Shown here in pieces: positions 1,958 to 22,572 of a DNA stretch of 32,000 bases. The notes under the pieces were generated by a model, which saw only the letters and a list, made by a program, of their open reading frames with translations, ran no database searches and had not been told where the DNA came from. Numbering within the stretch: position 1 is the first letter of the stretch; each line of letters begins with the position of its first letter. Made by a program: the position numbers and the translations under genes. Source of the DNA: a cyanobacterium endosymbiont of Epithemia turgida isolate EtSB Lake Yunoko (GTDB taxonomy: Bacteria > Cyanobacteriota > Cyanobacteriia > Cyanobacteriales > Microcystaceae); contig NZ_AP012549.1 of NCBI RefSeq assembly GCF_000829235.1, positions 2,190,001-2,222,000 on the forward strand. Reading direction: 5' to 3'.

Positions 1958-2124
1958 ACTACGTACTCCAGTAAGAGTAGTATGATTAACTCACTGTCTT
2001 TAATCGTAACATAATATTCTCTATCAGGAAACTTTTTTTATCCCTTTTGTAAAAAAAAGAATTATGGGACAATTTTTAGGATAAAAGCCTCTCAAAATAT
2101 AGGCTAGTCCATACATACACTTAA

Positions 2125-4113: not shown

Positions 4114-4156
4114 AAGAATTAATCTAAGGTTAAATTCATGTAGTCATTGAAAAGCA

Positions 4157-5017
4157 TCAACTTCGCCAAATAGCATCAGCTACTAGTGCTATATCTACTA
4201 TTTGTGCTACGTCATGAACCCTTAATATATCTGCTGATTGGGCGATTGCTCCACAGCAGGCTGCGGCAGTTCCCCAGAGTCGTTGTTTCGGGTTAATATG
4301 ACCAATAAAACGCTTACGAGAAACTCCCACCACTATAGGCTGGACTAAACGCTTAAATTCTGACAAACGCTGTAATAGTTCTAAATTTTGTGAGTAAGTT
4401 TTGGCAAAACCGATACCAGGATCAATGATGAGGTGTGATCGCTTAATGCCAGCTTTCATCGCTAAATTCAGTTGATTATCTAACCATTGAATAACTTCTT
4501 CTATTAAATCAGTATAATCCGTCAATTGTTGCATAGTTTGAGGATTACCTCTAATGTGCATTAAGATGATAGGGACTTTTAACTTAGCCACCACTGCAAA
4601 CATCTGGGAATCAAAAGTTCCTCCAGAAACATCATTTACTAAGTCTGCACCTGCTTCGATTGACACTACTAGAGCATCAGCAACTGATGCTCTAGTAGTG
4701 TCAATCGAAATAGGAATAGACGTTTCCTGACGCAGTAGTTTTATTATAGGAATAACACGATTTAATTCTTCTTCGAAAGAAATTTGTTGAGACCCTGGCC
4801 GTGTTGATTGTTCCCCAATATCGATAATATCTGCTCCTGAATTAATGAGGATTTTAGCTTGAATTAAAGCGGTTTCTAAAGTATTAAACTGGCCACCATC
4901 ACTAAAACTGTCAGGAGTTACGTTAAGAATCCCCATAATATAGGTTCTTTTTCCCCAACAAAAGGAATATTGTCTTAGTTTTAAATCAGCCATAATAGTT
5001 TTAAATACTTTCAACAT
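4157..5017 (-). CDS. folP: Dihydropteroate synthase
   Basis: 286-aa ORF with DHPS motifs GILNVTPDSFSDGG, DIGEQSTRPG, ISIDT, NDVSGG, MHIRGNPQTM, DPGIGFAKT and GVSRK. An alternative start is the ATG at 4993 (MADLKLRQ..). The frame is open but contains a 55-bp perfect palindrome (4655-4709) that adds about 3 codons between the ISIDT and AGADLVNDVSGG motifs. Confidence 0.85.
   Translation of the reverse strand: MLKVFKTIMADLKLRQYSFCWGKRTYIMGILNVTPDSFSDGGQFNTLETALIQAKILINSGADIIDIGEQSTRPGSQQISFEEELNRVIPIIKLLRQETSIPISIDTTRASVADALVVSIEAGADLVNDVSGGTFDSQMFAVVAKLKVPIILMHIRGNPQTMQQLTDYTDLIEEVIQWLDNQLNLAMKAGIKRSHLIIDPGIGFAKTYSQNLELLQRLSEFKRLVQPIVVGVSRKRFIGHINPKQRLWGTAAACCGAIAQSADILRVHDVAQIVDIALVADAIWRS
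4655..4709. repeat. Perfect palindrome inside folP (26-bp arms, 3-nt spacer)
   Basis: 4655-4680 (ttcgattgacactactagagcatcag) is the exact reverse complement of 4684-4709 (ctgatgctctagtagtgtcaatcgaa). The spacer is caa. I checked this base by base. Confidence 0.97.
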
Positions 5018-5075
5018 ACTACTTCATAAGAAATAAGGAGGCGGTCTTTGCGCCCCCTATTTCCAATAAACTCAT

Positions 5076-5801
5076 TTATTGATAATTAACAATGCGTGCA
5101 AATCCTACCGAATCTAAACTAGCTCCTCCCACTAACACGCCATCAATTTCAGGTTGAGCCATAATTTCATCAACATTAGAAGGTTTAACTGATCCTCCAT
5201 ATTGGATAGTAACTTCTTCATTTGACAACTGAGAGCGAATGATACCAATAACGCGGTTAGCTTCAGTCGCTTCACAAGTATCTCCAGTCCCAATCGCCCA
5301 AATAGGTTCATAAGCAATGACTAAATTACTTTGATTGACATTAATTAAACTTTGTTTGACTTGGTTAATAATAACAGGTTCTGTTTCTCCTCTATCCCGT
5401 TGTAATTTACTTTCCCCTACACAGAGAATGGGAATTAGTCCGTGGCGTTGGGCAGCTAGCACTCGTAGATTTACTGTTTCATTAGTTTCACCGAAATATT
5501 GACGCCGTTCACTGTGTCCAACCACCACATAATCTACTCCAAGCTCTGTCAGCATTGCACCAGATATCTCTCCTGTATAAGCTCCTTCATCTTCCCAGTG
5601 GATGTTTTGTGCTGCCAAATGAATCAACCCAGCATATAGACTTTTTGACATGACACTCAAAGCAGTAAAGGGAGCGCATAAAACTACTTCTCTTGTTCCG
5701 TTCATTTCTTCGAGATTCGATTTTGATTCTTGCAAAAACTCCAGAGCTTTCTTCTGAGTTTTGTGCATTTTCCAGTTACCCGCAATAATAATTTTTCTCA
5801 T
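5076..5801 (-). CDS. tpiA: Triosephosphate isomerase
   Basis: Complete 241-aa ORF with the motifs [30 protein letters not shown] and GGASL. Confidence 0.95.
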
Positions 5802-6433
5802 AGCTATCTCTAAAAATTAATTTCAATGTTTTTGCAGTCTTCTAGTTTAATGCCTTAAGGATATCAGAGGGAAGAGTACAATAAGATCAAAGTTTGAGAA
5901 AGGAGATAATGTCTTAAGGAACATGACTCATAATCACTTCTATCACTTTTTAAGTAAAATACTTAAAAAACTTAGGATAAAAATTAATTTATATTCTAAA
6001 TTTTTTAGAAAAAATATTGATGTTTATGATTTAACCATTATATTTAATTTCAATGAAAAAGGTTAAATATTGTTATTTTTAACTCTTTTTATTAAAATAT
6101 TTTAACTTTGCAATTAGTACATTTTATTAAATTTTTTCGGGTTTAAAATACTAAGAATTATCCATACATTAGCATAAATTTTAATAAAAAAGCTTTAATA
6201 TTTAACAAACTATCCTGATTAGAAACTAGATATTGTTACATATCTTATTTAATCTTTTAAAGATATAGTTATTTTAATAATTTTAAATATCATATTTTAG
6301 AATTTTTTTTACAATAAAAATTAGGATTAAGTTATAGAGAATATGTTACACTTATTTAATAAGACTTAAACAAAAGATAGTTAGAGCTGCAGATTATATT
6401 TTAATAGCTAAATAAGTGGTTTTATTATAAAAT

Positions 6434-6554
6434 ACTTATTCTTTACTTATTCTTTACTTATTCTTTACTTATTCTTTACTTATTCTTTACTTATTCTTTA
6501 CTTATTCTTTACTTATTCTTTACTTATTCTTTACTTATTCTTTACTTATTCTTT
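6434..6554. repeat. Tandem repeat, 11 exact copies of the 11-bp unit ACTTATTCTTT
   Basis: Counted unit by unit from 6434 to 6554 with no mismatch. It lies in an ORF-free AT-rich spacer. Confidence 0.97.
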
Positions 6555-6936
6555 GTTAATAAATACTAATATTTTTGCTAAAATAAAGATATATATTGGC
6601 AGCTATCAACGTTAGTTAAATTAAACCATATAGTATGTTTTTGTTAACCAATAATCTAAGCTCTATAAAAAAATAACAGTATTTATTTCAAAATTTATTT
6701 GACCAACAAATTGGTTTAACTTAAATAATTAAAACGCAAAATTATTCTTAAAATTTCACCACTCTTAAACAGATACTATCTGAAACAGAATACACCTAAC
6801 ATAGGTTTTAGTGCAATATGTATAGATTAAAGAAGATCTTATATATTTATTTTCAGTAATCCAAGTTTCAAGAATAACGGCTTACTAAGCCAAAAAGTTA
6901 GCAATACTTTGTTAAATCATTTTCTTTTTTTAAACT

Positions 6937-7086
6937 TTATACTCTATCTGATGTTTCCTGATAGAGTGCAGAATCGAATGGTGGAACTTCAATATTGGGA
7001 CATTCATCTTTAGTTGTACTAAAAATGTAATCAAAGCCTTCAGCGATATATTGAACTAAACTTTGCAAGATTTTATCGACACTCAT
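6937..7086 (-). CDS. Small hypothetical protein (49 aa), below the ORF-track cutoff
   Basis: The minus-strand ORF reads MSVDKILQSLVQYIAEGFDYIFSTTKDECPNIEVPPFDSALYQETSDRV*. An AAGAGG Shine-Dalgarno-like motif lies 8 nt upstream of the ATG. The ORF forms a local GC-richer island inside an otherwise ORF-free desert. I cannot assign a family from memory. Confidence 0.4.
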   Translation of the reverse strand: MSVDKILQSLVQYIAEGFDYIFSTTKDECPNIEVPPFDSALYQETSDRV

Positions 7087-7792
7087 AACATCTGCCTCTT
7101 AACTCTCATGAACTTTATAAAAAACTTCACTTGCTGAGGGTTTTTATTTTTTAGAGTTAAAAAAAGCTTTTTTCATCTCTTCTGTTCTCGATTATCTTAA
7201 GAATATTTCAACCTTTGAACAAGTTTGTAATAAATTTTAAAATGACAAGAATCCGCTTTGTATTTTCGTTAACTTTTATAAACTAAAATATTAGCTAGTA
7301 TTAACTTCTAGAGAATTCAGTATAACCATAATGATAGGTTTTCAAACAAAAAACTATTTTTTCACTAAATCAAATTAATCAATTTAATTTACCAATATAT
7401 TTAAAAAATATTGGAATTTTAACTTAAGTTTTTTAAAATAAAAAAACTTAAAGATCAAGGAATTTCAATTGCTATTATGATAAAATTAACGTATTCTATC
7501 GTTGATAGAGCTATTTTGAGAATTTAGTCACTATTAAGATGGTTTATAGATATAGTGAGTGAGTTAGATTTATGAGAACGTACTATGATGTGCTTTCAAT
7601 ACTATCATTCTTGTCCTAATACTGATAAGATTTTATCTCACAATTATCGATAATTTTTAGAGATTAAAGTTATAACTAAGATGGATATTATCAATTACTA
7701 TTTTAAAATAGTGATACTTTTAAAGTAAAACTTAATCAACAAAAGTGAAGTATGTATTCAAGCTATTAAAATGCTATGTGTAGCTGTCATGC

Positions 7793-7820
7793 AACCAGAT
7801 TTAAAAGTTTAAATCTGGTT
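7793..7820. repeat. Perfect palindrome (13-bp arms, 2-nt centre)
   Basis: aaccagatttaaa-ag-tttaaatctggtt. Confidence 0.9.
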
Positions 7821-7919
7821 TAATTTGATATAATTTACTTTAATTAAATTAAAGTACTTAGGAGTACTGTCCTTAATTCAATACACTCGATTGTCTATGT
7901 TTTTCTAAGAGCAAAGATT

Positions 7920-9245
7920 GACTTTATTCTAAATGATTACAGTTTGCTCATAGGTTTGTAGAATCTAACTATGATTGCTTGTTACACCGGAGAGAAACTT
8001 GCTCATCATCAAGCGAGTTTTGAACTGTTCATATGTCATCTCCCAGAATCTTTTGGATATTTAATTGCCATGGGAATTACTCAAAATTTAAATCTTTTAG
8101 AAAATCTACACTTTAGTGAAAAATCCTAAAAAATAGGATTAAAACCTGATTTTTAATCCTATTTTTTAGGATTTTTCATTAGTTCTAGCTTCAGGAGGCT
8201 TTACGGGGAAAGTTTGGGCAGTACATGAAGGAACAACGGTATTTTCCCATGAACCTCTATTGCCGACAGAAGTCTCTTTCTTGCAAGCCCAACTTATAGA
8301 AACCTACTTTTTAAACACCCTCAACTATTAAAATTAGATTGCTACTAAAGTCGGTAGAATAGGCGATGTAGCAAGTAAAAACGCTTTTTTATTAGAAAAA
8401 CCTGAGGTGTGTTCAGTTCAGTCCTTAAGGTTCGATATGAGCGGCTAGAGTAGCTTTAGCGGGAGGGTTGGGGGTCACCTTTAAATAGGTTAGCAGCTCT
8501 AAAATTAGGGTGCCAACCTAGTGTAATCATAGCTTATTCTTTAATCATGGCTATCAAAGCTGTATCAGGGAGTGAAGATGAAGCTTTATATACCTTTAGG
8601 CGTTATTTTTCAGGAGCTACTTTGCTACTTAATACCTAAGATGCAGTAGCTGCAGCAGAAAGCTTAGTGGACAAAGTTAATAAAAGAATCCTCAATGTCA
8701 CAGAAGTTCGCATAGATTCGGGAGATTTAGTTACCTTATCCCAAAAAGTGCGATTTCTATTACCCAACATTAAGATCTTTGCCAGTGGCGATCTTGATGA
8801 ATTGGGAATTGCTCGTCTCAAAGAAGCAGGTGCCTCTATTGATAGTTGTAGATTCGGAACCAACCTTGTAACCGGCAAACCTCTCAAGGGAGTCTATAAA
8901 TTAATGGAAATTGATGGAGCTATTACTATGGCAAAATCTAGCAGTAAGGCCACCTATCCAGGGCAAAAACAGATTTTTGGGACCTACATACAATGAGGGT
9001 ATAGTCAAAGGTGATTGCTTAGGGTTAACCACTGTCTCAATTGAGAGAGCGGAAACCAACTTTTACAGTTGGTCATAACAGAAGGAAAATCCTTGTTTCA
9101 ACCTGAATCTTTAGAGACTATTCGTCAACGAACTCAAAGGTCGGTTGAGAGTCTCCTCTCTGCAACTCATCATCTTAGGCAACCCACTTAAATTGAGGTT
9201 AAAATCTCCAATGAACTCGAATCGTTGCGTCAATCTTTAGGTTAA
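7920..9245 (+). pseudogene. pncB: Nicotinate phosphoribosyltransferase pseudogene (multiple stops and frameshifts)
   Basis: Collinear NAPRTase fragments appear in shifting frames:
- NLTMIACYTGEKLAHHQASFELFICHLPESFGYLIAMGITQNLNLLE (from 7962).
- GFTGKVWAVHEGTTVFSHEPLLPTEVSFLQAQLIETYFLNTLNY* (8196-).
- MAIKAVSGSEDEALYTFRRYFSGATLLLNT* (8548-).
- ORF 8667-8996 (..VRIDSGDLVTLSQKVRFLLPNIKIFASGDLDE..FGTNLVTG..VYKLMEI..TYPGQKQIF).
- The C-terminal ..ITEGKSLFQPESLETIRQRTQRSVESL..RQPT*IEVKISNELESLRQSLG*, ending at 9245. Confidence 0.88.
8116..8177. repeat. Perfect palindrome inside the pncB pseudogene (28-bp arms, 6-nt loop)
   Basis: 8116-8143 (tgaaaaatcctaaaaaataggattaaaa) is the exact reverse complement of 8150-8177 (ttttaatcctattttttaggatttttca). 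The loop is cctgat. Confidence 0.97.
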
Positions 9246-9281
9246 TGGATAGTGAATAGTTGAGTGTTAATTATTAATCAT

Positions 9282-9848
9282 ATGACAAAAATTGCTCTGT
9301 TTGGAACTAGTGCTGATCCTCCTACCGCCGGACATCAATCAATTCTCCGTTGGTTATCTACTCACTATGATTGGGTTGGGGTTTGGACTTCGGATAATCC
9401 TTTTAAAACTCATAAAACTTCTTGGTACCATCGTATGGCAATGTTAACATTATTAATTGATGATATTAATCTCCCAAGAAACAATATTTATCTTAGTGAG
9501 AAACTAAGTCATCGATGTAGTTTGATAAGTTTAGCTAAAGCTAAAGAAATTTGGGGAAACAATCCTGATTATAGTTTGGTAATCGGGTCTGATTTAGTTG
9601 GTCAAATTCGTCGTTGGTATCATATTGAAGATATACTAGAGCAAGTCAATCTTTTGATTGTTCCTCGCTCTGGATACGACCTGACTCAAAAGGATATAAT
9701 AGCTTTGAAGAAATTAGGAGGAAACTATCAGATTGCTGATCTTGCTGTCCCTGCTGTTTCTTCGACTGCTTATAGAGAAAACCAGAATCCAAGTGTATTG
9801 ATTAAACCTATTCAAGAATATATTTATCGAGAGCAATTATACCGATAA
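9282..9848 (+). CDS. nadD: Nicotinate-nucleotide adenylyltransferase
   Basis: The ORF is open from the GTG at 9264. The ATG at 9282 gives MTKIALFGTSADPPTAGHQSIL.., the nucleotidyltransferase (H/T)xGH motif at the usual N-terminal position. SSTAYRE lies near the C-terminus. The gene sits in a pncB-nadD-nrtR-nadE cluster. Confidence 0.88.
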   Translation: MTKIALFGTSADPPTAGHQSILRWLSTHYDWVGVWTSDNPFKTHKTSWYHRMAMLTLLIDDINLPRNNIYLSEKLSHRCSLISLAKAKEIWGNNPDYSLVIGSDLVGQIRRWYHIEDILEQVNLLIVPRSGYDLTQKDIIALKKLGGNYQIADLAVPAVSSTAYRENQNPSVLIKPIQEYIYREQLYR

Positions 9849-9869
9849 ATTTAGAAAAAAATAAATTTG

Positions 9870-10546
9870 TTTTAGCCGGGTTTAAACCTAGTGTAAATAA
9901 TATAATTTTTTTCCTTAATTTTTACCAGAATCAACTCTTCTCTTTATTTGTTAAATGGAAACTCACTCTGTAATAAGCAATAGAATTTATATAAAATTTT
10001 ATAAATTTTTTAAAAAAGTATTATGTAAAAAAATTAGAGTCAATAATCTATATTTAGAGCAATTATGTACTTTTAAGAGTCAAAATTTAGATCCAAAGGT
10101 ATCTCTTAATAGTTTTAATGTCCACTATATTTCTGTTAGCTATTTTGTTTTAGTTCGTTTTGAATAGGCATAACTCTTAAATCTTAATAATTATGGATAG
10201 AATTACTTGGTGCATCATTCAAAAGATTACTCAATTAGTTTTTGATTATGATCAAATTTTAGATTATCGTTATCAACGATTGTGCAATAAAATTAAATAT
10301 AGTCCTATTGCTTTTGAGGTTCTGCTGTACTTATTTACTTTAAATGATATTTATCAAGTTTATTCAGCTATTTTATAAAAAAACTTTACTGATTATTCTA
10401 ATTTTAAATTTCGATTATTAAAATTAGATTTTCTGATAAATACTAAGAGAAAAGTCTCTATAGTTACAGGAAGACCCGCTAGTTTATATCGTTTTGACTT
10501 TGAAGTATTTAATCCCTTTAAAGACAACCATTTTATATTTGTTTAA
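9870..10546 (+). pseudogene. nrtR: Nudix-related NAD regulator (NrtR-type) pseudogene
   Basis: Nudix-domain remnants read ..SVNNIIFFLNFYQNQLFSLFVKW.. and ..NNLYLEQLCTFKSQNLDPK..ISVSYFVLV (compare YLEQLYTFG..RDPRG..ISVAY.ALV). The C-terminal winged-helix part reads FDYDQILDYRYQRLCNKIKYSPIAFEVLLYLFTLNDIYQVYSAIL*KNFTDYSNFKFRLLKLDFLINTKRKVSIVTGRPASLYRFDFEVF. It has an in-frame TAA at 10376-10378, and the same frame continues to 10546. The track ORFs 9955-10167 and 10193-10378 are pieces of this gene. Confidence 0.72.
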
Positions 10547-10563
10547 ATCTAATAAGATTACTT

Positions 10564-12252
10564 ATGAAAATTGCTATTGCTCAACTGAATCCAACCATTG
10601 GAGATTTAGCAAATAACGCTAAAAAAATTGTAGAAGCAGCTCAATTTGCTGCTCATCAAAATGCTAGGCTTTTACTAACTCCTGAATTATCTTTATGTGG
10701 ATATCCTCCCCGCGACTTACTACTTGATCCTAGTTTTATTAAATCCCTTTCTATTGAATTGCAAAGTTTAGCTCAGAAATCTCCCTCTCAATTAGCTATT
10801 TTAGTAGGAACAGTTACTCCTAATCATGATGCTCATATTAAAGGAGAAAAGCCTCTTTTTAATAGTATTGCGTGGTTAGAAAATAGTCAGATAAAAAAGG
10901 TATTTCATAAAAGACTTTTACCAACGTATGATGTCTTTGATGAAGATCGCTATTTTGAACCAGGGCGACAAAATAATTATTTCGAATTATTACCTGATTC
11001 CCAATCATCTACTCCTTTAAAAATTGGGATTACAATCTGTGAAGATTTATGGAATGATGAAAAGTTTTGGGGGGGTAAATATTATGAGTATAATCCCCTA
11101 GAAGATTTGCTTAAATTTGGGGTTGATTTTATTTTAAATTTATCTGCTTCTCCCTATAATGTCGGCAAGCAGAAGATACGAGAAAAAATGGTAAAATATA
11201 GCAGTAAACACTATCAAACTCCTATTATTTATGTCAATCAAATTGGTGGTAATGATGATTTAATTTTTGATGGAAATAGTTTTGCTGTAAACAAAAAAAG
11301 TGAAATTGTATTACGATTAAAGGCATTTGAGGAAAATATTGATTTTATCAATTTACAAATAAAAGATAAAGATCTTTCTTTGTCAAAAATAAATGATGAA
11401 ATAAAAATAGAGGAAGAAGAAATTTGGCTAGCCCTAGTTTTAGGGGTTAAAGACTATGTGAAAAAATGTGGGTTTTCTAAGGTCGTTTTAGGATTAAGTG
11501 GAGGAATTGACTCTGCGTTAGTTGCTGCGATTGCTACAGAAGCGTTAGGAAAAGAAAATGTATTAGCATTACTTATGCCATCTCCTTATAGTTCTCACCA
11601 TTCTATTATTGATGCTGAAGCTTTAGTTAAAAATTTAGGTATTAACAGTTATAAGTTACCTATTGGGGATATTATGGAGTCTTATAAGATTCTATTAGAC
11701 CCCTTATTTGAAGGAACAAAACTTGGAATTGCTGAGGAAAATATTCAATCTCGCATTCGGGGTAATTTATTGATGGCTATTGCTAATAAATTTGGACATC
11801 TTCTGCTATCTACTGGGAATAAATCAGAAATGGCGGTAGGTTATTGCACTTTGTATGGTGATATGAATGGAGGGTTAGCTGTTATTTCAGATGTGCCTAA
11901 AACTCGTGTATTTTCCCTTTGCCGTTGGCTAAATTGTGACAGAGAAATAATACCCCATAATATTTTAATTAAATCCCCTAGTGCGGAATTAAAACCAAAT
12001 CAAACCGATCAAGACTCTTTACCCTCTTATGAAGTACTTGATGAGATTTTAGAGGGATTAATTCATCGTCATCAATCAGTTAGTCAAATTCATGAAGCAG
12101 GATTTGATTTAGCCACTATCGATAAAGTAATAAAATTAGTTGCCAGTGCTGAATTTAAACGAAAACAGGCTTCTCCAGGATTAAGAATAACTGATAGAGC
12201 ATTTGGAACAGGTTGGAAAATGCCTATTGCAAATCGTTGGAAAATTAATTAA
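10564..12252 (+). CDS. nadE: Glutamine-dependent NAD+ synthetase
   Basis: Complete 562-aa ORF. It has an N-terminal CN-hydrolase/nitrilase domain (MKIAIAQLNP.., TPELSLCGYPPRDL, ICEDLW) and a C-terminal NAD synthetase domain with the PP-loop GLSGGIDS, followed by STGNKSE and EFKRKQA. Confidence 0.95.
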   Translation: MKIAIAQLNPTIGDLANNAKKIVEAAQFAAHQNARLLLTPELSLCGYPPRDLLLDPSFIKSLSIELQSLAQKSPSQLAILVGTVTPNHDAHIKGEKPLFNSIAWLENSQIKKVFHKRLLPTYDVFDEDRYFEPGRQNNYFELLPDSQSSTPLKIGITICEDLWNDEKFWGGKYYEYNPLEDLLKFGVDFILNLSASPYNVGKQKIREKMVKYSSKHYQTPIIYVNQIGGNDDLIFDGNSFAVNKKSEIVLRLKAFEENIDFINLQIKDKDLSLSKINDEIKIEEEEIWLALVLGVKDYVKKCGFSKVVLGLSGGIDSALVAAIATEALGKENVLALLMPSPYSSHHSIIDAEALVKNLGINSYKLPIGDIMESYKILLDPLFEGTKLGIAEENIQSRIRGNLLMAIANKFGHLLLSTGNKSEMAVGYCTLYGDMNGGLAVISDVPKTRVFSLCRWLNCDREIIPHNILIKSPSAELKPNQTDQDSLPSYEVLDEILEGLIHRHQSVSQIHEAGFDLATIDKVIKLVASAEFKRKQASPGLRITDRAFGTGWKMPIANRWKIN

Positions 12253-12289
12253 TACTAGCTAAAAGGACAATACTTTTATAGTATTTAAA

Positions 12290-14711
12290 ATAAATTGAGG
12301 TAAAATTGAATCATGATCCATGGTTATTGAGATATCTGAAAAGAATTAGACCATGTAGATCCGCGTTCTTCCTAGTTATGAATTTAAGGAATAGTTGGTA
12401 AATTATCCCCGTAGATAGAAGAATGTACGGTCACATTTGCGATTGTTATGCTATCGTCGAATAATTAGGTGACTAATTTCATATAAGGAATTTCCCCGCA
12501 TCCTGCACAAGCATCCGAAAACTCAAACAAGAGTTCTTACATCTGTTGATGACTAATTTTATTTAGTTGTAAAGTATGTGATTTAAGATTAACAAGAGCG
12601 AAAAAATAGTCCAAATTTTTTCGCTTTTACTCCTGTATTGGTAATTGAGAAGTCATATTTATTGCTTCCAACTTTGCTTGAAATTTATTTTTTGTAGTAC
12701 AAACATTTACATAAAACCCACACCTACTACAGTCTTCCGCAACGACTTGGCTCGTGAATTTCAATTAAGTTTTTTAAAGTCTAAACACTTTGCATAAGTA
12801 GTTTTGAAGACTTGGAGTACATTGGTAAATGTTTGTTTCTTATACACTTTATACTGAATGACCGCATAAGGATACACTAAAACACATTTATTACCTTAAA
12901 CACAGACATTGAGGTCTCGTACAGATATTTAATGGATAACCTTCTGGTTTTTCTATTTTATTTTACCATATTTTTTAAATACATCACGGGTAAATACTAA
13001 TGTGGCATTGAAAATCAGACATTCAAAGTTAGTTGCGTCGTCATCTATCGTTATCGAAACCGCTACTTGATGAAAATAATCTAATGCCGAGTCAACCACT
13101 TTCATATTCATTTGTACGATTTATTTACTTTTTTTACTATAAGTCTTGTAGATGTGTTTTAAAATTGGCTCTCTAGCTTTTTCTCTAGTTAATCCTTTTA
13201 GTTATTTATTGATAATTTATTTTTGGATAGACTAAAAAAATAATATTATATTAGATTTAATCTATAGTGATTATTTAGTATAAATATTAAGCTTTCAACT
13301 ACTCATTCTAAAATATAAATTTATTTATAAGAAAAATCATTAGTTATAAATAATAAAGTTAGCGTTGTTACCTGGTTTAATTAAACTAGAAAAGAAATTT
13401 TTGGAGTAAAAATATCAGGGGTTTGTTCGATGATTTTACCCAGGTTTTCGTTTATATTAACAATCATATCTAAGTATCAACTATAGCAGATAGCTATATT
13501 ATAATCAGTTCTTATAAAAAAGGTTAGACTAGCATGAATAAAACTATCTTTAGTTATAGGATTAAAGTGGTTTTTGCAATCACTTAATACCATATTATTA
13601 CAAATTTTTTTAACCATTAAAGAGATGATTTTTGTGAAATAAATTATATGCCGTTCTCCAATAACTATTTTAATACTTTAAATTAATATCTAAATCTAAA
13701 TAGAGTTTTTAACGCTTTAAAGATAACATATAAATATAAAAGTTATCCAAATAATTTATTTTAAAATTGAGTTTATTCTTGCTATTTTTAATAAAAATTT
13801 AACGAGCTTTATTGTTAAAAATAGACAATACTATTTAATTCTAACAATCCCAATTTTTCCATTAGTTTAATAAAAAATTCAATGCTTTATAAGTGTTTTT
13901 ACAAAACTCATCAAAATAATAACTTTTTCTGCTTTAGAATTACCATAATAGTCAAACAAATGATATTGTTAGCCCGTCAGTTAAGCAAACTTATACATTA
14001 CTTTTTCTAAGATTTTGTGATAAACTTTAGAAAACTCTGGGGGTTCCCTCGTTTGTAAGTAAACATCAGAGTTTTGTAGTAGTTCTTCAACTCATCGGGT
14101 AATCAGGAGTTAACACTCATTCACGATGGGCAATCATCCATTGATCTTTAATCAATGATCGCAAGACACTATCCTCTAATAACTCCACTTTTTGCACTTA
14201 ATAGGCAGTTCGAAACCCATCAAAAAATATATAAAACCCCACAAAAACTGGTGGCTGTAGCTATTACAGCTAAATCTTGCACTTCTTGCACAGATGCAGA
14301 ACTTAACAATACCAACCTAGTCCTACGGACAGCCATCACATTACTATGATCTGATCACCAAAAATAGATAACGTCTGGGCAACTAGAGAGTCTGCTGCGA
14401 CACGGAGTACCAATTGACATGATTTTTCTTATTAAATTGTAGCTATCAGAAATTATCAATAATAAATTCTAAAATAATGTCAATGGAGTGTTAATACTCT
14501 TGTTTACAATGCTTTATTAATAATCTCTGCTATTCCTCTCTCACTTTATATTTAGACGACGGAAGGTACAGTTATCCGGAGGTTTGATCCGCCCATTCTT
14601 CTCTAGGTGAGGAAAAGTAATAGGATAGATAGCAATCACTTCATTGACGTGACGAGTCACTCTAACGACCGCTTTGTTTCCACTCAAAGTGACATAGACT
14701 TAAGTGTTCAT
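12290..14711 (-). pseudogene. nifJ: Pyruvate:ferredoxin/flavodoxin oxidoreductase pseudogene (heavily decayed, 3' part deleted)
   Basis: Collinear PFOR signatures appear on the minus strand through many stops and frameshifts:
- N-terminus, about 14711-14550: MNT*VYVTLSGNKAVVRVTRHVNEVIAIYPITFPHLEKNG.
- About 14385-14205: LSIFGDQIIVM..FFDGFRTAY*VQKVELL.
- About 12935-12850: ISVRDLNVCV*GNKCVLVYPYAVIQYKVY, a decayed CxxCxxCxxxCP ferredoxin motif.
- About 12540-12390: ELLFEFSDACAGCGEIPYMKLVT*LFDDSITIANVTVHSSIYGDNLPTIP.
- About 12375-12335: EERGSTWSNSFQ. Confidence 0.88.
12597..12625. repeat. Perfect inverted repeat (11-bp arms, 7-nt loop) inside the nifJ pseudogene
   Basis: agcgaaaaaat-agtccaa-attttttcgct. 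Confidence 0.9.
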
Positions 14712-15410
14712 AGTGTTCTGGTGCTTGTTTTTTGAGTCCGACAATAAGTTGATTAGAGGGAAAAATTCCTGTAACGAATACGTAACACTTTGTGGTTGAT
14801 AAGTAAAAATAACTACTCTTTTAAAGGTAAGTCAAAGAACTTTAAGGATAGTTAATTATTGAATTAAATTAATGTAAAGTCTACAGTAAGCCTTCTAGGA
14901 CTAAAGTCTCTTATATTTTCATAGTCGTGACTTCAGTAATTATGCCTCTACTCTTAGAATCCAACATAATCAAAGAGTTTAAACAATTTATTATCTTTTT
15001 TTAAGACGTTTAATTTAATAAATATTTTGACGTAAATAAAAAATTATAAATAAAAAGTATCATTTTTCAATGACTTTCAGCAAAGAATACATGTAATTGT
15101 GAGCAAAAAAATTGGACTAATTAGTCTACTAACTATCCGTACCAACCTTGAATATTATTTTAACAAATAAATTGAAATTAAAGTTATCTAAATTTTGTCT
15201 ATCATCAGAGTAATCGCAAAAACGGTTAGTATATTTTTCTGTTTTTTATTGTCTTAAAACAATAGTTCAGAATGTATTAAGTAACCTGGCGGTTGCTATA
15301 TTATTTAGCATAGGCTAGAAATTTGACAAATTGGATCCTCTTTTATTCTAAAACAACTACTTCTACAGAATTATTTAAGAACCCTGGGAAAAAATTGATT
15401 TAGATTTCAC

Positions 15411-18053
15411 TTAAACAATATCTTCTTCTGATTGTTTTTTACAAAATTCTAAGTTATTATTATGACAATCAACAATAACTTGATCACCACAAACAAATCT
15501 ATTTTCTAATATTCTTGTCGCCATAGGATTCTCTAATTCTCGTTGAATAGCCCGTTTTAAAGGACGCGCTCCATAGACTGGATCATAACTAGAACTAACA
15601 ATATAGTCTAGGGCTGAGTCTGTTAATTCTATCCTAATTTTTTGTTCTTTAAGTAATTTTTCAATTCGTTTTATTTGCAGACACACAATCTGCCGTAACT
15701 CTGTTTTATTAAGAGTATGAAAAATAATCAGATCATCGATACGGTTCAAAAATTCGGGACGGAAATGTTTATGCAATGATTCCAAAACCTTTTTGCGCAT
15801 TTCCTCATAATCTGTTTCACCTTGTGTAAGGTTAAGGATATGGCTACTTCCTATGTTACTAGTCATTACAATAATAGCGTTACGGAAATCTATCACTCGT
15901 CCTTGGGAATCAGTAATACGTCCATCATCAAAGACTTGCAAAAGAATATTAAAGACATCTACATGGGCTTTTTCCACTTCATCCAACAACACTACACAAT
16001 AGGGACGGCGACGGACTGCTTCAGACAATTGTCCCCCTTTCTCATACCCCACATATCCAGGGGGCGCACCAACTAATCGAGAGACTGCCTGTTTTTCCAT
16101 ATACTCAGACATATCAATGCGAACCATTGCTTCTTCTGAGTCGAAGAGAAAAGCGGCTAATGCCCTAGCTAATTCAGTTTTTCCTACCCCTGTAGGACCC
16201 ATAAACAAGAATGAACCAATAGGACGAGAAGGATCTTTCATTCCAGCTCTAGCACGACGAATAGCAGCAGCAACAGCAGCTATAGCCTCTTGTTGTCCAA
16301 TAACCTTTTCGTGTAGATGTACTTCAAGTTTAAGAAGTTTTTGACGTTCGGTCGCTAACAAATTATTGGTAGGAATACCTGTCCATCCAGCTACAATTTC
16401 AGCAATATCAGACTCGGAGACTTGTTCTCGGAGTAAGGTTTTGCCCTGCGCTTGAATATCAAGAAGTCGGGTTTCTTTAGCTTCCCGTTGCTGTTGAACC
16501 ACTTCTAGTTTACCGTATTTTAATTGAGCGGCTTTGTTCAGTTCGTAAGCCCTTTCTGCTTGTTCGACTTGTAGACGTAGCTGTTCTTCTTCTTCTTTAA
16601 GAGTATTAATATCATTAAGTATCTGCTTTTCTAACTGCCATTGGGACGCAAGTTGTTCGTGAGTAGATTCTAAATTTTTTATTTCTTTTTGAATGCCTTC
16701 TAAACGTTCTTTGGAAGCGCAATCAATGATTAACATTCCTCGTTGTTCTTCTCCCTCTAAGGAAAGTTTTTCCATTTGTAACTGCATTAAACGACGATCA
16801 ACATCTTCTAGTTCAACAGGTTTAGAGGTGATTTCCATTTTTAACTTAGCTGCTGCTTCATCTACAAGGTCAATGGCTTTGTCGGGTAAAAAGCGATCAG
16901 TAATGTAACGATGGGAAAGAGTTGCTGCAGCTACTAATGCTGAGTCAGTAATTTTGACCCCATGATGGACTTCATAGCGTTCTTTGAGTCCTCGTAGAAT
17001 GGAAATGGTATCTTCCACACTCGGTTGTTTAACATACACTTGCTGAAAACGCCGTTCTAGAGCAGGATCTTGTTCAATATGCTTCCGGTACTCATCAAGA
17101 GTTGTTGCACCGATACAGCGCAATTCTCCGCGGGCTAACATGGGTTTTAAGAGGTTACCTGCATCCATGCCTCCTCCTTCGCGAGAACCGGCTCCAACAA
17201 CGGTATGAAGTTCATCGATAAAGAGTATGATTTCTCCCCCGGATTGGGTGACTTCTCGCATTACGGTTCGTAGACGTTCTTCAAATTCCCCTCGATATTT
17301 CGCCCCCGCGATAAGACTTCCCATATCTAGAGAGATTAATTGACGACTTTTGAGAGACTCAGGAACGTCCCCGTTAATAATACGTTGGGCTAACCCTTCG
17401 GCAATTGCAGTTTTTCCGACTCCTGGTTCTCCAATTAAGACGGGGTTATTTTTTGATCTACGGGAAAGAACCTGAATCACACGACGAATTTCTTCATCTC
17501 GGCCAATTACAGGGTCAAGTTTTCCTTTTGCCGCTTGTTCAGTAAGATCTCGCCCATATTTTACGAGAGCTTCATAATTATCTTCTTGGTTAGGTTCGGT
17601 AACTTTTTGTGACCCTCGAAGTGCCCTTATCTCTTTCTCTAAGTCTTGGGGGTCAAATTGAAAACTCTTCAAGCAACGTCGTCCAATGCGTTCATCTTCA
17701 GCAAATCCCATCAACAGATGTTCAACGGAAATATATTTATCTTGCCAACTTTCACGAGAAGCTTCCGCACGATCTAACATTAAATCTAAGCCCTGTCCTA
17801 AGTAAAGTTGATCGACAGTAATTACTTTAGATTGACGGTTGCCAAAAACTTCTAACTGTTGTTGTAATCGGAAAACATCTAAGTTAGATCTTTCTAAAAT
17901 ACGAATAGCTAAGCCTTTTTCCTGTTCTAACAAGGCTAAAACAACGTGTTCCACTTCTAAGGTTTGATTTCTAAAACGCCGGGCTACGTCTTGTGATCTG
18001 ACAATCGCGTCCCAGGCTTGTTCTGTAAACTTACTTGAATCAGTTGGCTGCAT
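15411..18053 (-). CDS. clpB: ATP-dependent chaperone/disaggregase ClpB
   Basis: The ORF is open to 18104. The ATG at 18053 gives [18 protein letters not shown].., the usual cyanobacterial ClpB N-terminus. There are two AAA+ modules with Walker A motifs GEPGVGKT and GPTGVGKT. A long coiled-coil middle domain and the ClpB signatures [11 protein letters not shown] and [10 protein letters not shown] are present. Confidence 0.95.
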
Positions 18054-18797
18054 TATTGGTTTAATTCCCTGCGGGTAAGGCAAAAGTTGATGACAATACG
18101 ACATTCAACTTAATCCTAATATTCTTATTTTAATCGGTAGTATGACGAGCGGTAGAAAGAAAGACAGTTCTAATTTCTGATCCTGTCAAGTTTCATTAAG
18201 GACATAGTCAAATTGGATTTCTATTAAACTTAACTAATAGGATATCAATTTTCATTGAACAAATTTTCAACTACTTGTAGGACAATCGATCCAGAAGATT
18301 ATAAAGTATTTTCACTTAATAACTTTCCTATCAGAAATTCATTTTCTTGCTTTAATGGCAAGCCATCTCACTTCTGAAGAGACTATTTTAATAGCATCAG
18401 GCAAACAATAAGGCAACCATCTCGATTTTTATAAAGTTTGTTATATTTTCAAACTATTTTTATGCAAAAAATACAAAATTTTTATTTTGGGCATTTATTG
18501 CACGTATAAAATTTGATTAAACGAGCAATTAAAATCAAAAAATTGCTCTGCAAAAATTGCTTTCTATACATCAACCGCTATAATTTTATTTATCTTATTG
18601 ATTGTCTTAGTTTATGTCATATCGATATATTTTTTAAACTTTATTATTAGTTTAACATAGCCCAAATATCTAGTTGGCAGCAAGATCTTAGCTCTGTTAA
18701 TACACCTAAACTGAAGCTTACTACCAACCCAGATTTTTATGCATATGATGCATATTTTGGCTGTGTCAGTTGACTTATTTCTGAATTTCTATTTCTT

Positions 18798-19604
18798 TTA
18801 AGTTGTTGCCCAAAATCTGATAACATACCAGAGGGCTTTTACCCCATCTGTCCAATTAATTTTTTTACCTTCAGCATAAGATCGCCCATAATAAGAAACT
18901 CCTGCTTCATATAAACGCCAACGACGGTGAGACTTAGCTACCTTAACAGTGAACTCTACTTCAAAACCGAAGTCATTACAATTCAACTTTATATCATCCA
19001 AGACTTCCCTTCGGAACATTTTTGTACAAACTTCAATATCTGTTAAAGTCGTGTTACAGAGTAAATTAATAAAGTTAGAAATAACTTGATTACCTAAGAG
19101 GTGGTAAAAATATAAAACCCGATGAGGTTCACCATAAAAGCGAGATCCATAAACTACATCAGCCCACCCTTCCTCAATTAATCGCCACATCCGTTTCCAG
19201 TCTTGGGGATCATATTCTAAGTCAGCATCCTGAATCAAAATTACTTCTCCTCTAGCGGCTTTAAACCCTGTTCGTAAGGCAGCTCCTTTACCTTGATTAC
19301 GTTTATGGAAGATCACTTGAGCACTAACAGACAAGGAGTCAGAAGGTGTTACTTCTGGTCGAAGATGATGAGTTTCGCATTTGATCACTATTAATCGTTG
19401 ATTACTATCAAGTTCAATTTTCACCCTTTGGCTATTTGCTTGGACAAAAGTTCGTTCTAACCATTCTTTAGTTCCATCAGTCGATCCATCATCAACTAGA
19501 ACAATTTCTTTAGAAATCCCTGGAAGTGCTTGAACTACTTTGGTTAAAGCACTTTCTATAGTATGAATTTCATTGTAAACAGGAATAACAATCGATAATT
19601 TCAT
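18798..19604 (-). CDS. Family 2 glycosyltransferase
   Basis: The ORF is open to 19631. The ATG at 19604 is preceded by GAGGAG 7 nt upstream and gives MKLSIVIPVYNE... GT-A motifs are VDDGSTDGT and QDADLEYDP. Confidence 0.88.
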   Translation of the reverse strand: MKLSIVIPVYNEIHTIESALTKVVQALPGISKEIVLVDDGSTDGTKEWLERTFVQANSQRVKIELDSNQRLIVIKCETHHLRPEVTPSDSLSVSAQVIFHKRNQGKGAALRTGFKAARGEVILIQDADLEYDPQDWKRMWRLIEEGWADVVYGSRFYGEPHRVLYFYHLLGNQVISNFINLLCNTTLTDIEVCTKMFRREVLDDIKLNCNDFGFEVEFTVKVAKSHRRWRLYEAGVSYYGRSYAEGKKINWTDGVKALWYVIRFWATT

Positions 19605-20496
19605 AAGAGATCTCCTCGAACACCTTTTCAATGGTTAATTTTATCTATTGACCTAACTTTACTCTTTTTTTCTCCTTGCTTATACCAATTTATCTTTAGT
19701 TATTGCAAGGCTTCTAAGAATTTGGGGTGAGTCAATTAAATTTAATAAATCAAGTTCAATTATAGACATTAGTTACCCTGACATATACTGTCATCATAGT
19801 GAAAAAAGTTTTTCAAAGTCAGGTTTTGACAGCTAACTATACTGAGATATCTCAAACATTAGTATAGATTAAATAATCTTGTGAAGTTACACAGAATGGC
19901 AAACTTACATTACTCAAGAATATATAAATTTAGATTATTTCTACAAAGTAGAATTTTATTAACGAGTTTCACTAATTTTCACTTCATCTCTTGTTGACCA
20001 AAATTAATTGATTAAAGTTTATAATTAATAAAAAATCTTTAAAAATTTATTTAGTAATATATCTTCAGTCTCTAAATAATTTATTTATTAAACCTTGCGT
20101 TAAATCAAAAATAGATTTATGTCTATTTGTGTTACCTTAAATTTAATTCAAAGCAGCTCACCACATTCGTTTATGATCTAATGTAGTAGATTAAATTTTA
20201 AATACTATTTCACATAATTGAATGCTAATTATTGAAGCAATTTAATTAAATTTTTGAAAGCTAAATGTATATAATGACGAGATTAATGACATATTTCTAT
20301 CAAAGTAAGTTTTATTAAACTTATTACTATTATTTACAAGTTAGTGATGAATAGAATATTAGCATTCTCATATCAGGCATAAACTTTATAAAATAAAAAA
20401 AAATAACTATATCAATAAATATTTTTTAAAAAAAAATTAACCATGATATTTAAAATTTCAATATTTTGATTAATTACAAGCAATTGTAGTAATTTT

Positions 20497-20553
20497 AATT
20501 TATATTATTTTTACATAAAAATGGTATTTTTTTATGTAAAAATAATATAAATT
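20497..20553. repeat. Perfect palindrome in a gene desert (25-bp arms, 7-nt loop)
   Basis: 20497-20521 (aatttatattatttttacataaaaa) is the exact reverse complement of 20529-20553 (tttttatgtaaaaataatataaatt). The loop is tggtatt. Confidence 0.95.
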
Positions 20554-22119: not shown

Positions 22120-22406
22120 ATGGATAAACCGACTACTGTTATTTATTCAATTACAGAAGTTCTTAAGTGTATTGACAATAAGTTAGATGGAAATTAAAAG
22201 TAAGTTAATCACAAGTTTAAATTTGATCTAAAAAATGTTATGGATTTAAAGTTGGAAGTAATAACCTAGACTAAGAAATTTAAGAGAATAGATAAGTGAC
22301 TATAAAAAGTACAAAAAACTTAATAAATTAAGTTTGGGCGTTAATTATTTTTTTGTTCTGTGCCATTCTTACTGCTACTAGATTATTTTTCAAGGACAAT
22401 TGTTAA
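22120..22406 (+). pseudogene. Possible decayed small coiled-coil/C-terminal TM protein gene
   Basis: An AGGAG motif lies 9 nt upstream of the ATG at 22120. The reading MDKPTTVIYSITEVLKCIDNKLDGN* is followed by stop-riddled K/L/E-rich reading. In another frame there is a clean hydrophobic tail, VWALIIFLFCAILTATRLFFKDNC*, ending at 22406. This is pattern only, with no family assignment. Confidence 0.3.
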
Positions 22407-22572
22407 CCAACAAAGCGTGATCTGATATTTCAGATTATCTTTAATATAAGATTCAAAGGTGACATTATCAATGATAATAAATAAAATATAGAGAAAAAAA
22501 CTTATTTTAAATAAATTAACTTGTTGACTTGGAGTTTTAAAAAAACAATAGTAACTCTTTCTGATTCTTTCT

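Follow-up and report, generated by a model that had tools for sequence, protein, structure and literature searches.

Perfect palindromes in a spheroid-body genome as probable products of template switching at quasipalindromes

The perfect palindromes in a 32,000-nt window of the Epithemia turgida spheroid-body genome (EtSB; NZ_AP012549.1, 2,190,001-2,222,000, forward strand) are probably products of short-range template switching at quasipalindromes, a reading to which we give a probability of about four in five. An earlier note on this DNA had proposed that local sequence is turned into perfect hairpins, with template switching or quasipalindrome correction as the origin. Both proposals fit our results. 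Copying of one arm from the other is apparent at folP, at 8117, at 20497 and in other lineages, and such an origin is indicated by new bases that are reverse complements, by mirrored arm changes and by inverted spacers. The window events add a clear-cut case to a mutational process that was already known.

EtSB lives inside the diatom Epithemia turgida as a cyanobacterial endosymbiont that fixes nitrogen. We compared it with five other spheroid-body genomes, namely the symbionts of E. adnata, E. clementina, R. gibberula and R. gibba, and uoEpiScrs1. The spheroid-body sample of six genomes amounted to about 170 kb (169.5 kb), and the search for arm copies spanned about 190 kb.

The palindrome at 4655-4709 (26-bp arms, 3-nt loop) is specific to EtSB and lies within folP, the dihydropteroate synthase gene (4157..5017, minus strand; Pterin_bind 283 bits, TIGR01496 310 bits), whose ORF is intact. 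At this site all relatives carry a quasipalindrome with an 8-bp outer and a 7-bp inner stem, TTCGATTG-ACACTACTAGA-GCATCAG-ttg-CTGA(T/G)GC-TG-CAATCGAA. The TG is replaced in EtSB by TCTAGTAGTGT, the reverse complement of ACACTACTAGA, yielding perfect arms of 26 bp. Two nucleotides have thus given way to 11, exactly the opposite bulge in reverse complement; the site is 9 bp longer on balance, the frame is kept and Leu-Val-Val is added. These 9 bp are missing in 7 of 7 relatives. Of the 55 bp, 44 are ancestral and shared with every relative; the other 11 are new and repeat the neighbouring 11 bases in reverse complement. The arm is single-copy in each relative and occurs twice, inverted, in EtSB only. 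Comparison of the orthologues shows that a quasipalindrome shared by all relatives was made perfect in EtSB only. In EtSB alone, folP has also undergone a 12-bp deletion and the change G68E within its GGxSTRPG loop.

Rickettsia palindromic elements can enter genes in frame, and the net in-frame gain in folP resembles them. It could be argued that the palindromes were inserted as members of a mobile or repeat family of palindromic elements, MITE, REP or Rickettsia-palindromic-element-like, for which in-frame gene insertion is possible. A true 39-bp insertion, specific to EtSB, at 12577-12615 points the same way. Its 3' part together with ancestral sequence makes up palindrome 12597-12625 (11+7+11), located between nadE and clpB in the nifJ/PFOR pseudogene region, where a remnant of pyruvate:ferredoxin oxidoreductase is found (POR_N, E 8e-4). 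Inverted copying explains only part of this insertion, and no source was found for its other ~28 bases. Set against orthologous DNA, a comparison that separates overwriting from insertion as the earlier note had envisaged, folP is a replacement with net gain and 12577-12615 reads as an insertion-type event. Against a repeat family, no alignment of at least 9 bp was found between arms, and no further full-length arm copy in the ~190 kb of spheroid-body DNA. The folP palindrome is built mostly from ancestral bases and completed from its own neighbours. Free-living cyanobacterial palindromes do form families (16 of 45 share 10-mers), whereas spheroid-body palindromes share sequence only between orthologues; a recent survey also infers few active mobile elements from genome stability. 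We consider this origin very improbable. The view that the arms are mutually unrelated and are not copies of a MITE, REP or other repeat family stands, the arms being single and built from local ancestral DNA.

The six palindromes of the earlier note were all found in the window sequence; the second long one exists as described, at 8117-8178 rather than 8116-8177, one base off. It has 28-bp arms and a 6-nt loop and lies in a pncB pseudogene remnant (NAPRTase_N, E 1.3e-4). The third, 20497-20553 (25-bp arms, 7-nt loop), occupies an AT-rich gap from a glycosyltransferase gene to recQ. The shorter ones are 7793-7820 (13+2+13), 12597-12625 and, upstream of tpiA, 5947-5969 (10+3+10). Contexts were also as reported: 4655 falls in the intact folP ORF, 8117 in the pncB remnant and 12597 in the PFOR remnant stretch. 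Absent from that inventory were 31666-31691 (13+0+13), 7424-7451 (11+6+11), 7836-7856 (10+1+10), 21841-21868 (10+8+10), 31165-31188 (10+4+10) and a hairpin in the nadD-nadE interval at 10397-10428 (11+10+11). Two sites conserved inside genes with 9-10-bp arms, 2263-2283 and 30186-30213, are likeliest to be chance.

Chance in AT-rich DNA, or an amplification or assembly artefact, might also be invoked for the palindromes. Whole-genome amplification can make inverted chimeras, and chance alone should account for about 2 of the 12 that have arms of at least 10 bp. In 200 dinucleotide-preserving shuffles in 500-bp blocks, 1.7 such palindromes were expected against the 12 observed; for arms of at least 13 bp, 5 were observed and 0.06 expected, and the 3 with arms of at least 15 bp were matched in none of the 200 shuffles. 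Local shuffles thus fall well short of the window count. Mirror repeats (reverse, not complement) served as a composition-matched internal control. With arms of at least 12 bp, inverted repeats outnumbered mirror repeats 5 to 0 in the window and 31 to 0 in 169.5 kb of spheroid-body DNA; only reverse-complement symmetry shows the excess. Folded as single strands of DNA, the long palindromes give -29.7, -25.7 and -19.9 kcal/mol, with z of -15, -12 and -9. Logan contigs of an independent run, SRR29904087, are 100.000% identical to the window at 1928-6462 and 16092-32000, covering palindromes 4655, 5947, 20497 and 31666. The 8117 palindrome falls outside these contigs, but its orthologue is also perfect in the E. 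adnata symbiont, a species sequenced separately. Neither artefact nor chance has more than a marginal probability as the explanation, and the palindromes are genuine features of the genome and, apart from the conserved hairpin at 10397-10428, recent ones.

Pairwise differences from the E. adnata symbiont, the sister genome, are mirrored between arms. Its orthologue of the 8117 palindrome (32+8+32) departs from that of EtSB in one substitution and one 5-bp indel, each mirrored on the two arms, and in having the spacer inverted, 6 of 8 spacer positions matching in inverted orientation and 1 of 8 directly. The site is not palindromic in the symbionts of E. clementina, R. gibberula or R. gibba or in uoEpiScrs1. 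At 20497 the E. adnata symbiont has perfect 24-bp arms whose outer halves differ in mirror image, and the spacers, TGGTATT and AATACCA, are exact reverse complements (7 of 7 inverted); the R. gibberula symbiont has only a quasipalindrome.

Similar changes were seen at shorter palindromes. At 7793 a quasipalindrome found in all spheroid-body genomes is perfect in EtSB alone, with the spacer inverted (AG in EtSB, CT in the outgroups) and one T-A pair changed to C-G. The 31666 palindrome also occurs in the E. adnata symbiont. In place of the TTAATCGTTTTAT of EtSB, the R. gibberula symbiont reads TTAAGAATTTTC, and the clustered 3-nt change is the reverse complement of the left arm. The E. adnata symbiont also shares the 5947 palindrome with EtSB, for which the outgroups have a different 9-bp hairpin with another centre, and therefore ~14 nt were replaced. 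Outgroups show a quasipalindrome at 7424; the E. adnata symbiont has lost one arm and the loop there and has gained a new 17+4+17 palindrome alongside. A perfect 9+2+9 palindrome at 22316-22335 has the spacer AA in EtSB and TT in the E. adnata symbiont, a spacer inversion, and imperfect arms in the R. gibberula symbiont. The 21841 palindrome is imperfect in the E. adnata symbiont, where that at 31165 has one mismatch. Because flanks are AT-rich and only one outgroup is available, the change at these two sites and in the E. adnata version at 20497 could be read in either direction.

Every sampled spheroid-body lineage has lineage-specific events of its own whose orthologues are quasipalindromes. 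Given as arm + spacer, they are 26+3 in the E. clementina symbiont; 21+8, 22+9 and 26+0 in that of R. gibberula; 20+12 (spacer inverted at 11 of 12 bases) and 18+0 in that of R. gibba; 25+0, 17+4 and 15+12 in that of E. adnata; and 14+5 in uoEpiScrs1. Of the ~535 clusters of differences that separate EtSB from the E. adnata symbiont across the window, at least 9 are inverted-copy events. In a crude automated scan of this pair, reverse-complement matches and a reverse-only control separated only at lengths of at least 16 (5 versus 2; at least 20, 3 versus 0). That the conversion is genome-wide is an extrapolation from ~170 kb of six genomes.

Taken together, the derived sequences reproduce the adjoining arm exactly as its reverse complement, short inverted repeats were present beforehand at both switch points, and the events are lineage-specific and recurrent at the same sites. 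A nascent 3' end, in replication or repair synthesis, would pair with a short inverted repeat close by, copy a stretch of the opposite arm and then go back. In this way one arm would be replaced or lengthened by the other's reverse complement, and a switch between strands would invert the spacer too. Within genes, only in-frame products such as that in folP would survive. Switching at a replication fork, fold-back synthesis in break repair and mismatch correction in an extruded hairpin would leave indistinguishable sequence traces.

Alternatively, the hairpins may be functional and kept by selection, whether they end transcripts, structure RNA or bind proteins, with ordinary compensatory evolution behind the mirrored differences. 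The 10397-10428 hairpin is conserved in 6 of 6 genomes; it is old, does not attest a recent event, and may be functional or due to chance. The 7793 quasipalindrome is likewise old and shows the T-A to C-G double change, and the core of 8117-8178 fits a loose terminator consensus on both strands. The long palindromes, however, sit in pseudogene remnants, coding sequence and AT-rich gaps, are missing from the other spheroid-body genomes, and belong to a set whose mean arm GC is low (0.23). Terminator-like sites are not enriched (11 versus 8.6 +/- 2.8 expected), and the one clear example, 5036-5058 directly downstream of tpiA, is a short GC-rich stem. A common binding protein is not plausible because the palindrome sequences are unrelated. 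Stepwise compensatory substitution, moreover, would not give mirrored 5-bp indels or exact spacer inversions. We find selection for function an improbable explanation for the palindromes at large.

Density comparisons with other cyanobacteria used arms of at least 14 bp and took ORFs of at least 100 aa as long. Palindromes are 4-9 times as dense per base in spheroid-body DNA. Outside long ORFs the figures are 26.9 versus 15.7 per 100 kb, about 1.7-2 times other cyanobacteria. Such regions hold 22 of the 24 spheroid-body palindromes and make up 48% of the sampled spheroid-body DNA. Since the ratio per non-ORF base is so modest, most of the per-base excess reflects the large non-ORF share, and the process is not clearly more frequent in spheroid bodies once decaying DNA is allowed for. 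The palindromes may be conspicuous mainly because about half of the genome is unconstrained, AT-rich and decaying; seed hairpins would be common there, and selection would not remove the products. The suggestion that palindromes are a hallmark of genome reduction is at most weakly borne out: the 4-9-fold density per base speaks for it, and the ratio of ~1.7 outside ORFs of at least 100 aa against it. A published survey found inverted-repeat-rich genomes to be more often those of endosymbionts (PMC10434271). Unlike our analysis, that survey took in every short inverted repeat per kb with no phylogenetic polarisation, and long perfect palindromes and how they arise lay outside its subject.

The underlying rate may itself be raised. 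The same template switching could have been accelerated by loss of a safeguard such as RNase HII (rnhB), SbcCD or a 3' exonuclease, an idea that we hold to be conceivable and rather unlikely. The gene rnhB is listed as absent in 6 of 6 rhopalodiacean symbionts and in UCYN-A, and yeast RNase H2 loss raises quasipalindrome mutations (PMC3820800); the per-base density and the frequency of inverted-copy events between EtSB and the E. adnata symbiont also agree with it. The excess outside long ORFs is, however, small, and Richelia HH01, which is not known to lack rnhB, has similar palindromes at one locus. To our knowledge, arms of 25-32 bp with spacers are not efficient SbcCD substrates. The earlier appeal to relaxed repair or lost palindrome processing is not supported by two genome surveys of these symbionts, in which replication and repair are reported as largely intact: mutS, mutL, recA, recFOR, recG, recJ, recN, ruvABC, uvrABCD and polA are kept, and the missing list consists of phrB, rnhB and one recQ orthologue only.

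Template switching at quasipalindromes can be set beside several known systems. Palindromic repeat families (REP, MITEs, Rickettsia elements and the cyanobacterial families of our control loci) likewise supply intergenic hairpin DNA, sometimes in frame in genes, but are multi-copy with shared sequence, whereas spheroid-body palindromes are unique and derive from local ancestral DNA. Plastid genomes carry hairpin-associated small inversions in which loop orientation flips between close relatives, with short inverted repeats flanking; their stems tend to be conserved and are credited with a part in transcript stability. The two systems share the loop flip and an AT-rich genome of cyanobacterial descent, and differ in that spheroid-body stems are themselves new and lie in decaying DNA. 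As in template-switch RNA hairpins and primate mutation clusters (PMC8794818, PMC7954356), a single inverted copy explains clustered multi-nucleotide changes and new long stems come from one event; no RNA function is implied in spheroid bodies.

Arm homogenisation, arm extension and spacer inversion together form the published signature of template switching between inverted repeats (PMC8604942, PMC5941160, PMC8794818, PMC7202029). Inverted-repeat homogenisation in yeast genes (PMC8604942) and perfect-repeat conservation in Proteobacteria (PMC5941160) parallel our cases: arms are perfected in single lineages, events recur at a given site, and spacers are exactly inverted from one sister taxon to the other. 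The largest arm among the cases drawn on here is 16 bp, in a study confined to coding DNA, whereas spheroid-body events lie mostly in pseudogenes and gaps, reach arms of 32 bp and in one case add 3 codons to an essential-pathway gene. In Ripley's model and in the Lovett laboratory's E. coli reporters (PMC7202029), an imperfect inverted repeat is likewise perfected in one step, the other arm templates the new bases and switching takes place in short stems already present. Unlike events in those reporters, the endosymbiont events are fixed evolutionary changes with arms up to 26-32 bp; the folP event agrees base for base with a quasipalindrome-associated template-switch mutation (PMC7202029).

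An exhaustive search of the window for perfect stems with a loop of at most 12 nt recovered three long palindromes, written here as arm + loop + arm in bp: 26+3+26 at 4655-4709, 28+6+28 at 8117-8178 and 25+7+25 at 20497-20553. Two others had 13-bp arms (7793-7820 and 31666-31691), three had 11-bp arms (7424, 10397 and 12597, named by first coordinate) and four had 10-bp arms. Against 200 dinucleotide shuffles in 500-bp blocks, by which local composition is kept, 12 palindromes with arms of at least 10 bp were observed where 1.7 were expected, and 5 with arms of at least 13 bp where 0.06 were expected; arms of 15 bp were reached in none of the 200 shuffles. The perfect palindromes that the earlier note had reported are thus present and exceed shuffled controls. 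Mirror repeats, whose composition dependence equals that of inverted repeats, served as a second control. With arms of at least 12 bp, 169.5 kb of DNA from spheroid bodies (the diatom endosymbionts to which EtSB belongs) contained 31 inverted and no mirror repeats. Independent contigs of run SRR29904087 were 100.000% identical to positions 1928-6462 and 16092-32000, with neither mismatches nor gaps over 20,444 bp, and the DNA so covered contains the palindromes at 4655, 5947, 20497 and 31666. The palindromes of the window are not artefacts.

The dihydropteroate synthase and RecQ encoded in the window match proteins of EtSB, the spheroid body of the diatom Epithemia turgida, at 100% identity. 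On the EtSB chromosome of 2,794,318 bp, the window carries trpE (85-1605, + strand), speA (2125-4113, - strand), folP (4157-5017, - strand) and tpiA (5076-5801, - strand), followed by decayed DNA (5.8-9.26 kb) with remnants of pncB, the nicotinate phosphoribosyltransferase gene. These remnants (7971-9260, with a weak NAPRTase_N match at 7971-8129) lie directly upstream of intact nadD (9264-9848, + strand) and nadE (10564-12252, + strand). A second decayed region (12.3-15.4 kb) holds a pyruvate:ferredoxin oxidoreductase remnant and precedes clpB (15411-18104, - strand), a glycosyltransferase gene (18798-19631, - strand), an AT-rich gap (19.7-22.5 kb), recQ (22573-24705, + strand) and a tRNA-Met (25817-25890, + strand). 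Between trpE and speA, a group I intron (1737-1933, - strand; Rfam RF00028, 88.6 bits) is presumably that of cyanobacterial tRNA-Leu(UAA); ARAGORN made no call of an interrupted tRNA around it. The E. adnata symbiont lacks some 1.4 kb of decayed nifJ/PFOR DNA (12355-13738) that is present, in diverged form, in the symbionts of E. clementina and R. gibberula; this looks like a lineage-specific deletion within a pseudogene.

Could the hairpins be functional and maintained by selection? The sites are found in pseudogenes, coding sequence and AT-rich gaps alike, and show no conservation past the sister species. Terminator-like sites showed no enrichment (11, with 8.6 +/- 2.8 expected), and the clear one, at 5036-5058 just downstream of tpiA, is a short GC-rich stem (6 of 8 pairs GC) unlike the palindromes. 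An intrinsic terminator has a short GC-rich stem and a T run and lies 3' of a gene, whereas the long palindromes possess 1-11 GC pairs per 25-28 and occupy coding sequence, a pseudogene remnant and an AT-rich gap. We therefore regard function under selection as unlikely. The hairpins at 10397, 2263 and 30186 were kept in all spheroid-body genomes compared and gave no sign of a recent event. That at 10397-10428 (11-bp stem, 10-nt loop), in the gap between nadD and nadE, is nearly unchanged in all six spheroid-body genomes and sits in well-conserved non-coding DNA upstream of nadE; it may be a regulatory element.

Next, we compared orthologous regions of five further spheroid-body genomes (the symbionts of E. 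adnata, E. clementina, R. gibberula and R. gibba, and uoEpiScrs1) and of free-living relatives. The event within folP at 4655 can be read base by base. In all relatives the site has the form TTCGATTG / ACACTACTAGA / GCATCAG ttg CTGA(T/G)GC / TG / CAATCGAA, in which an outer stem of 8 bp and an inner one of 7 bp flank an asymmetric bulge; both stems occur in all relatives, and in part in free-living Rippkaea. EtSB possesses TCTAGTAGTGT (11 nt) in place of TG, and when reverse-complemented these 11 new bases exactly equal the 11-nt bulge ACACTACTAGA. The outcome is a perfect 26-bp stem with a net gain of 9 bp, in which 44 of the 55 bp are ancestral local sequence. None of 17 aligned orthologues or 7 DNA orthologues has the change; in the protein it adds Leu-Val-Val, an insertion found neither in the 17 aligned orthologues nor in solved DHPS structures. 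Two other changes in EtSB folP were likewise seen in none of the 17 orthologues: a Gly to Glu replacement (GGA to GAA; G68E) in the conserved GGxSTRPG loop, and a 12-bp deletion removing four residues (GHI----NPKQ). With the insertion, this makes three non-conservative changes private to EtSB in a reading frame that is otherwise intact, which suggests that folate synthesis in this symbiont is under relaxed constraint or beginning to decay. No record was found of the exact window folP reading frame with its upstream start.

The two other long palindromes are also perfect in the E. adnata symbiont (32+8+32 at 8117 and 24+7+24 at 20497), with sequences that differ from those of EtSB. At 8117 the two genomes are separated by one substitution and one 5-bp indel, each of which recurs in mirror image on the other arm; at 20497 several differences in the outer half of the arm are all mirrored. 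The 20497 spacer of one genome is the exact reverse complement of that of the other (TGGTATT versus AATACCA), and 6 of the central 8 nt at 8117 match when inverted, compared with 1 of 8 in direct orientation. Mirrored differences together with inverted spacers show that, after the two species split, one arm was copied from the other at least once more and the spacer was inverted. More distant spheroid-body genomes were only quasipalindromic or non-palindromic at both sites. As the length there is almost the same as in the outgroups, these events were overwrites. A direction of copying at 20497 (left arm copied in EtSB, right arm in the E. adnata symbiont) was considered and dropped, since by matches to the single outgroup only the left arm of EtSB and its spacer orientation are clearly ancestral-like.

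Similar changes were seen at smaller sites. A clustered 3-nt change at 31666 is templated by the opposite arm, and spacers are inverted at 7793 (AG versus CT) and 22316 (AA versus TT). Outgroups are quasipalindromic at 7793, 7424, 20497 and 31666. At 7424 the E. adnata symbiont has lost one arm by deletion and built a new palindrome with 17-bp arms alongside. In terms of overwrite or insertion, the classes that the earlier note had proposed, 8117 and 20497 were overwrites and the folP arm had been completed from the adjacent arm, with an exception at 12577-12615. Here the 12597 palindrome closes off 39 inserted bp that are private to EtSB and only partly an inverted copy, and a search for the source of the insertion found none. 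This partly untraced insertion speaks for a palindromic repeat family of the MITE, REP or Rickettsia palindromic element kind. Against such a family, the arms bear no similarity to one another, no extra copies occur in about 190 kb of spheroid-body DNA, and 10-mers are shared by orthologous pairs only. Nor do the sites look like insertions into empty sites, the folP palindrome being mostly ancestral and 8117 and 20497 overwritten. For the DNA sampled, a repeat family can be ruled out, and the earlier note was right that the arms are mutually unrelated.

Quasipalindrome template-switch mutation, in which the nascent strand copies the opposite arm of an imperfect inverted repeat, arises during DNA synthesis, at a rate tied to replication direction and limited by 3' exonucleases. 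Earlier work (PMC8604942, PMC5941160, PMC8794818, PMC7202029) gives its signature between inverted-repeat arms as templated reverse-complement bases, stems that pre-exist at both switch points, and homogenisation and extension of arms with spacer inversion. The sites described here carry templated bases, ancestral stems, lineage-private clustered changes and, in a subset, an inverted spacer. In the mechanism we propose, a short inverted repeat pre-exists at the switch points and the new bases are templated by the adjacent arm; the clustered change arises in a single step in one lineage, with the spacer inverted in a subset by a switch between strands. Such switching may be fork-based, or may reflect fold-back synthesis during break repair.

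Every spheroid-body locus of about 20 kb had its own long perfect palindromes, at differing positions. Where orthologues could be aligned, they were quasipalindromes, with one arm matching conserved sequence and the other overwritten. In the symbionts of E. clementina (6147-6201), R. gibberula (2126-2175) and E. adnata (18606-18647), the conserved arm had served as template and its reverse complement had overwritten the other arm. Examples included 26+3+26 in the E. clementina symbiont; 21+8, 22+9 and 26+0 in the R. gibberula symbiont; 20+12, with 11 of 12 spacer bases matching inverted (site 6430), and 18+0 with a gain of 15 bp in the R. gibba symbiont; 25+0, 17+4 and 15+12 in the E. adnata symbiont; and 14+5, with an inverted spacer, in the symbiont genome uoEpiScrs1. 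The inverted-copy process is not peculiar to EtSB. The stretch orthologous to the pncB remnants (window 7971-9260) hosts lineage-specific palindromes in the symbionts of E. clementina (locus L001, 6147-6201) and R. gibba (locus L039, 6430-6481). A 20.8-kb locus (L079) of Richelia intracellularis HH01, of which 46% lies outside long ORFs, has five sequence-unrelated perfect palindromes within 7132-20503 (arms of 15, 27, 15, 23 and 18 bp), perhaps an occurrence of the same phenomenon in a separate symbiosis.

Across the window, EtSB and the E. adnata symbiont differ by 830 substitutions in about 535 difference clusters, and at least 9 of these clusters (1-2%) are inverted-copy events by curated alignment. 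We also scanned this alignment automatically, comparing difference clusters with nearby reverse-complement sources and using reverse-only and complement-only matches as controls. Informative only at lengths of 16 or more, the scan gave 5 reverse-complement, 2 reverse-only and 0 complement-only matches at that threshold, and 3, 0 and 0 at 20 or more. Because it was swamped by AT-rich low complexity at shorter lengths and is blind to events with differences across both arms, the curated alignments were used.

The density of palindromes with arms of at least 14 bp was 14.2 per 100 kb in spheroid-body DNA, 3.6 in 77 other cyanobacterial loci (1.25 Mb), 1.6 in the three closest free-living relatives (61.5 kb) and 3.0 in 80 assorted bacterial loci. 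The general bacterial baseline came from a metagenome scan with RecQ, which returned no spheroid-body or close relatives (best identity 68%). However, DNA outside ORFs of at least 100 aa makes up 48% in spheroid bodies and 18% in other cyanobacteria, and per non-ORF base the densities were 26.9 and 15.7 per 100 kb, respectively (12-23 in the general bacterial set). The excess over other cyanobacteria anticipated by the earlier note therefore held per base and was smaller per non-ORF base. Control palindromes differed in kind: they had a mean arm GC of 0.45, compared with 0.23 in spheroid-body ones, and 16 of 45 shared 10-mers and so belong to families. Chance stems able to seed a switch were about four times commoner per base in spheroid-body DNA, and the shuffle expectation for arms of at least 10 bp was 1.9 in 32 kb here versus 1.5 per 100 kb in the controls. 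In our reading, palindrome abundance largely mirrors the amount of unconstrained AT-rich DNA in spheroid-body genomes, although the rate itself may be modestly raised.

Relaxed repair, offered by the earlier note as a contributing cause, runs against two surveys in which replication and repair are largely intact in these symbionts, with only phrB, rnhB and one recQ orthologue listed as missing. The recQ entry, an orthologue of Cyan8802-4440, is listed as absent from every endosymbiont in Supplementary Table S2 (PMC12903740). The window recQ is intact (710 aa; TIGR01389 score 746 bits, cut-off 640), as is RecQ in all spheroid-body genomes found; the table entry is probably a different paralogue, and RecQ should not count among the lost repair genes. 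The spheroid-body genome papers and supplements yielded nothing on the status of sbcC, sbcD and xseA. RNase HII (rnhB) is reported to be absent in all six rhopalodiacean symbionts and UCYN-A; in Rippkaea the gene lies between rne and pheA, which are numbered consecutively in EtSB (PMC12903740). Because loss of RNase H2 in yeast leads to more quasipalindrome mutations (PMC3820800), this absence, reported in the literature for all these symbionts, is a concrete and testable lead as to a possibly raised rate; a role for RNase HII loss behind the palindromes is speculative. We think it improbable that the template-switch rate is truly raised in spheroid bodies, and perhaps in other diatom diazotroph symbionts (Richelia), with universal RNase HII loss as a possible cause. 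If it were, inverted copying would have a quantitatively important role, not recognised until now, in making pseudogenes decay, in small inversions and now and then in altering proteins as a nitrogen-fixing organelle emerges, and the eight or more complete close genomes would form a natural mutation-accumulation experiment for quasipalindrome switching.

To our knowledge, clean natural bacterial examples of template switching with resolved polarity are few. Several complete sister genomes permit each event to be read here base by base, the instances being: 1) the three codons added to folP; 2) two sites re-homogenised after the sister split with flipped spacers; and 3) private events in each lineage, with arms of up to 32 bp. 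Single inverted-copy events account for about 1-2% of the difference clusters in the window, and analyses of rate, dN/dS or positive selection should not score any of them as a set of independent substitutions. Such palindromes may also be places where deletions occur and assemblies break. A general survey found a tendency for inverted-repeat-rich genomes to belong to endosymbionts (PMC10434271), and the spheroid-body genome papers that we searched were silent on palindromes, hairpins and inverted repeats. The process itself is established, and these palindromes add a well-resolved case to it rather than revealing a new kind of mutational process.
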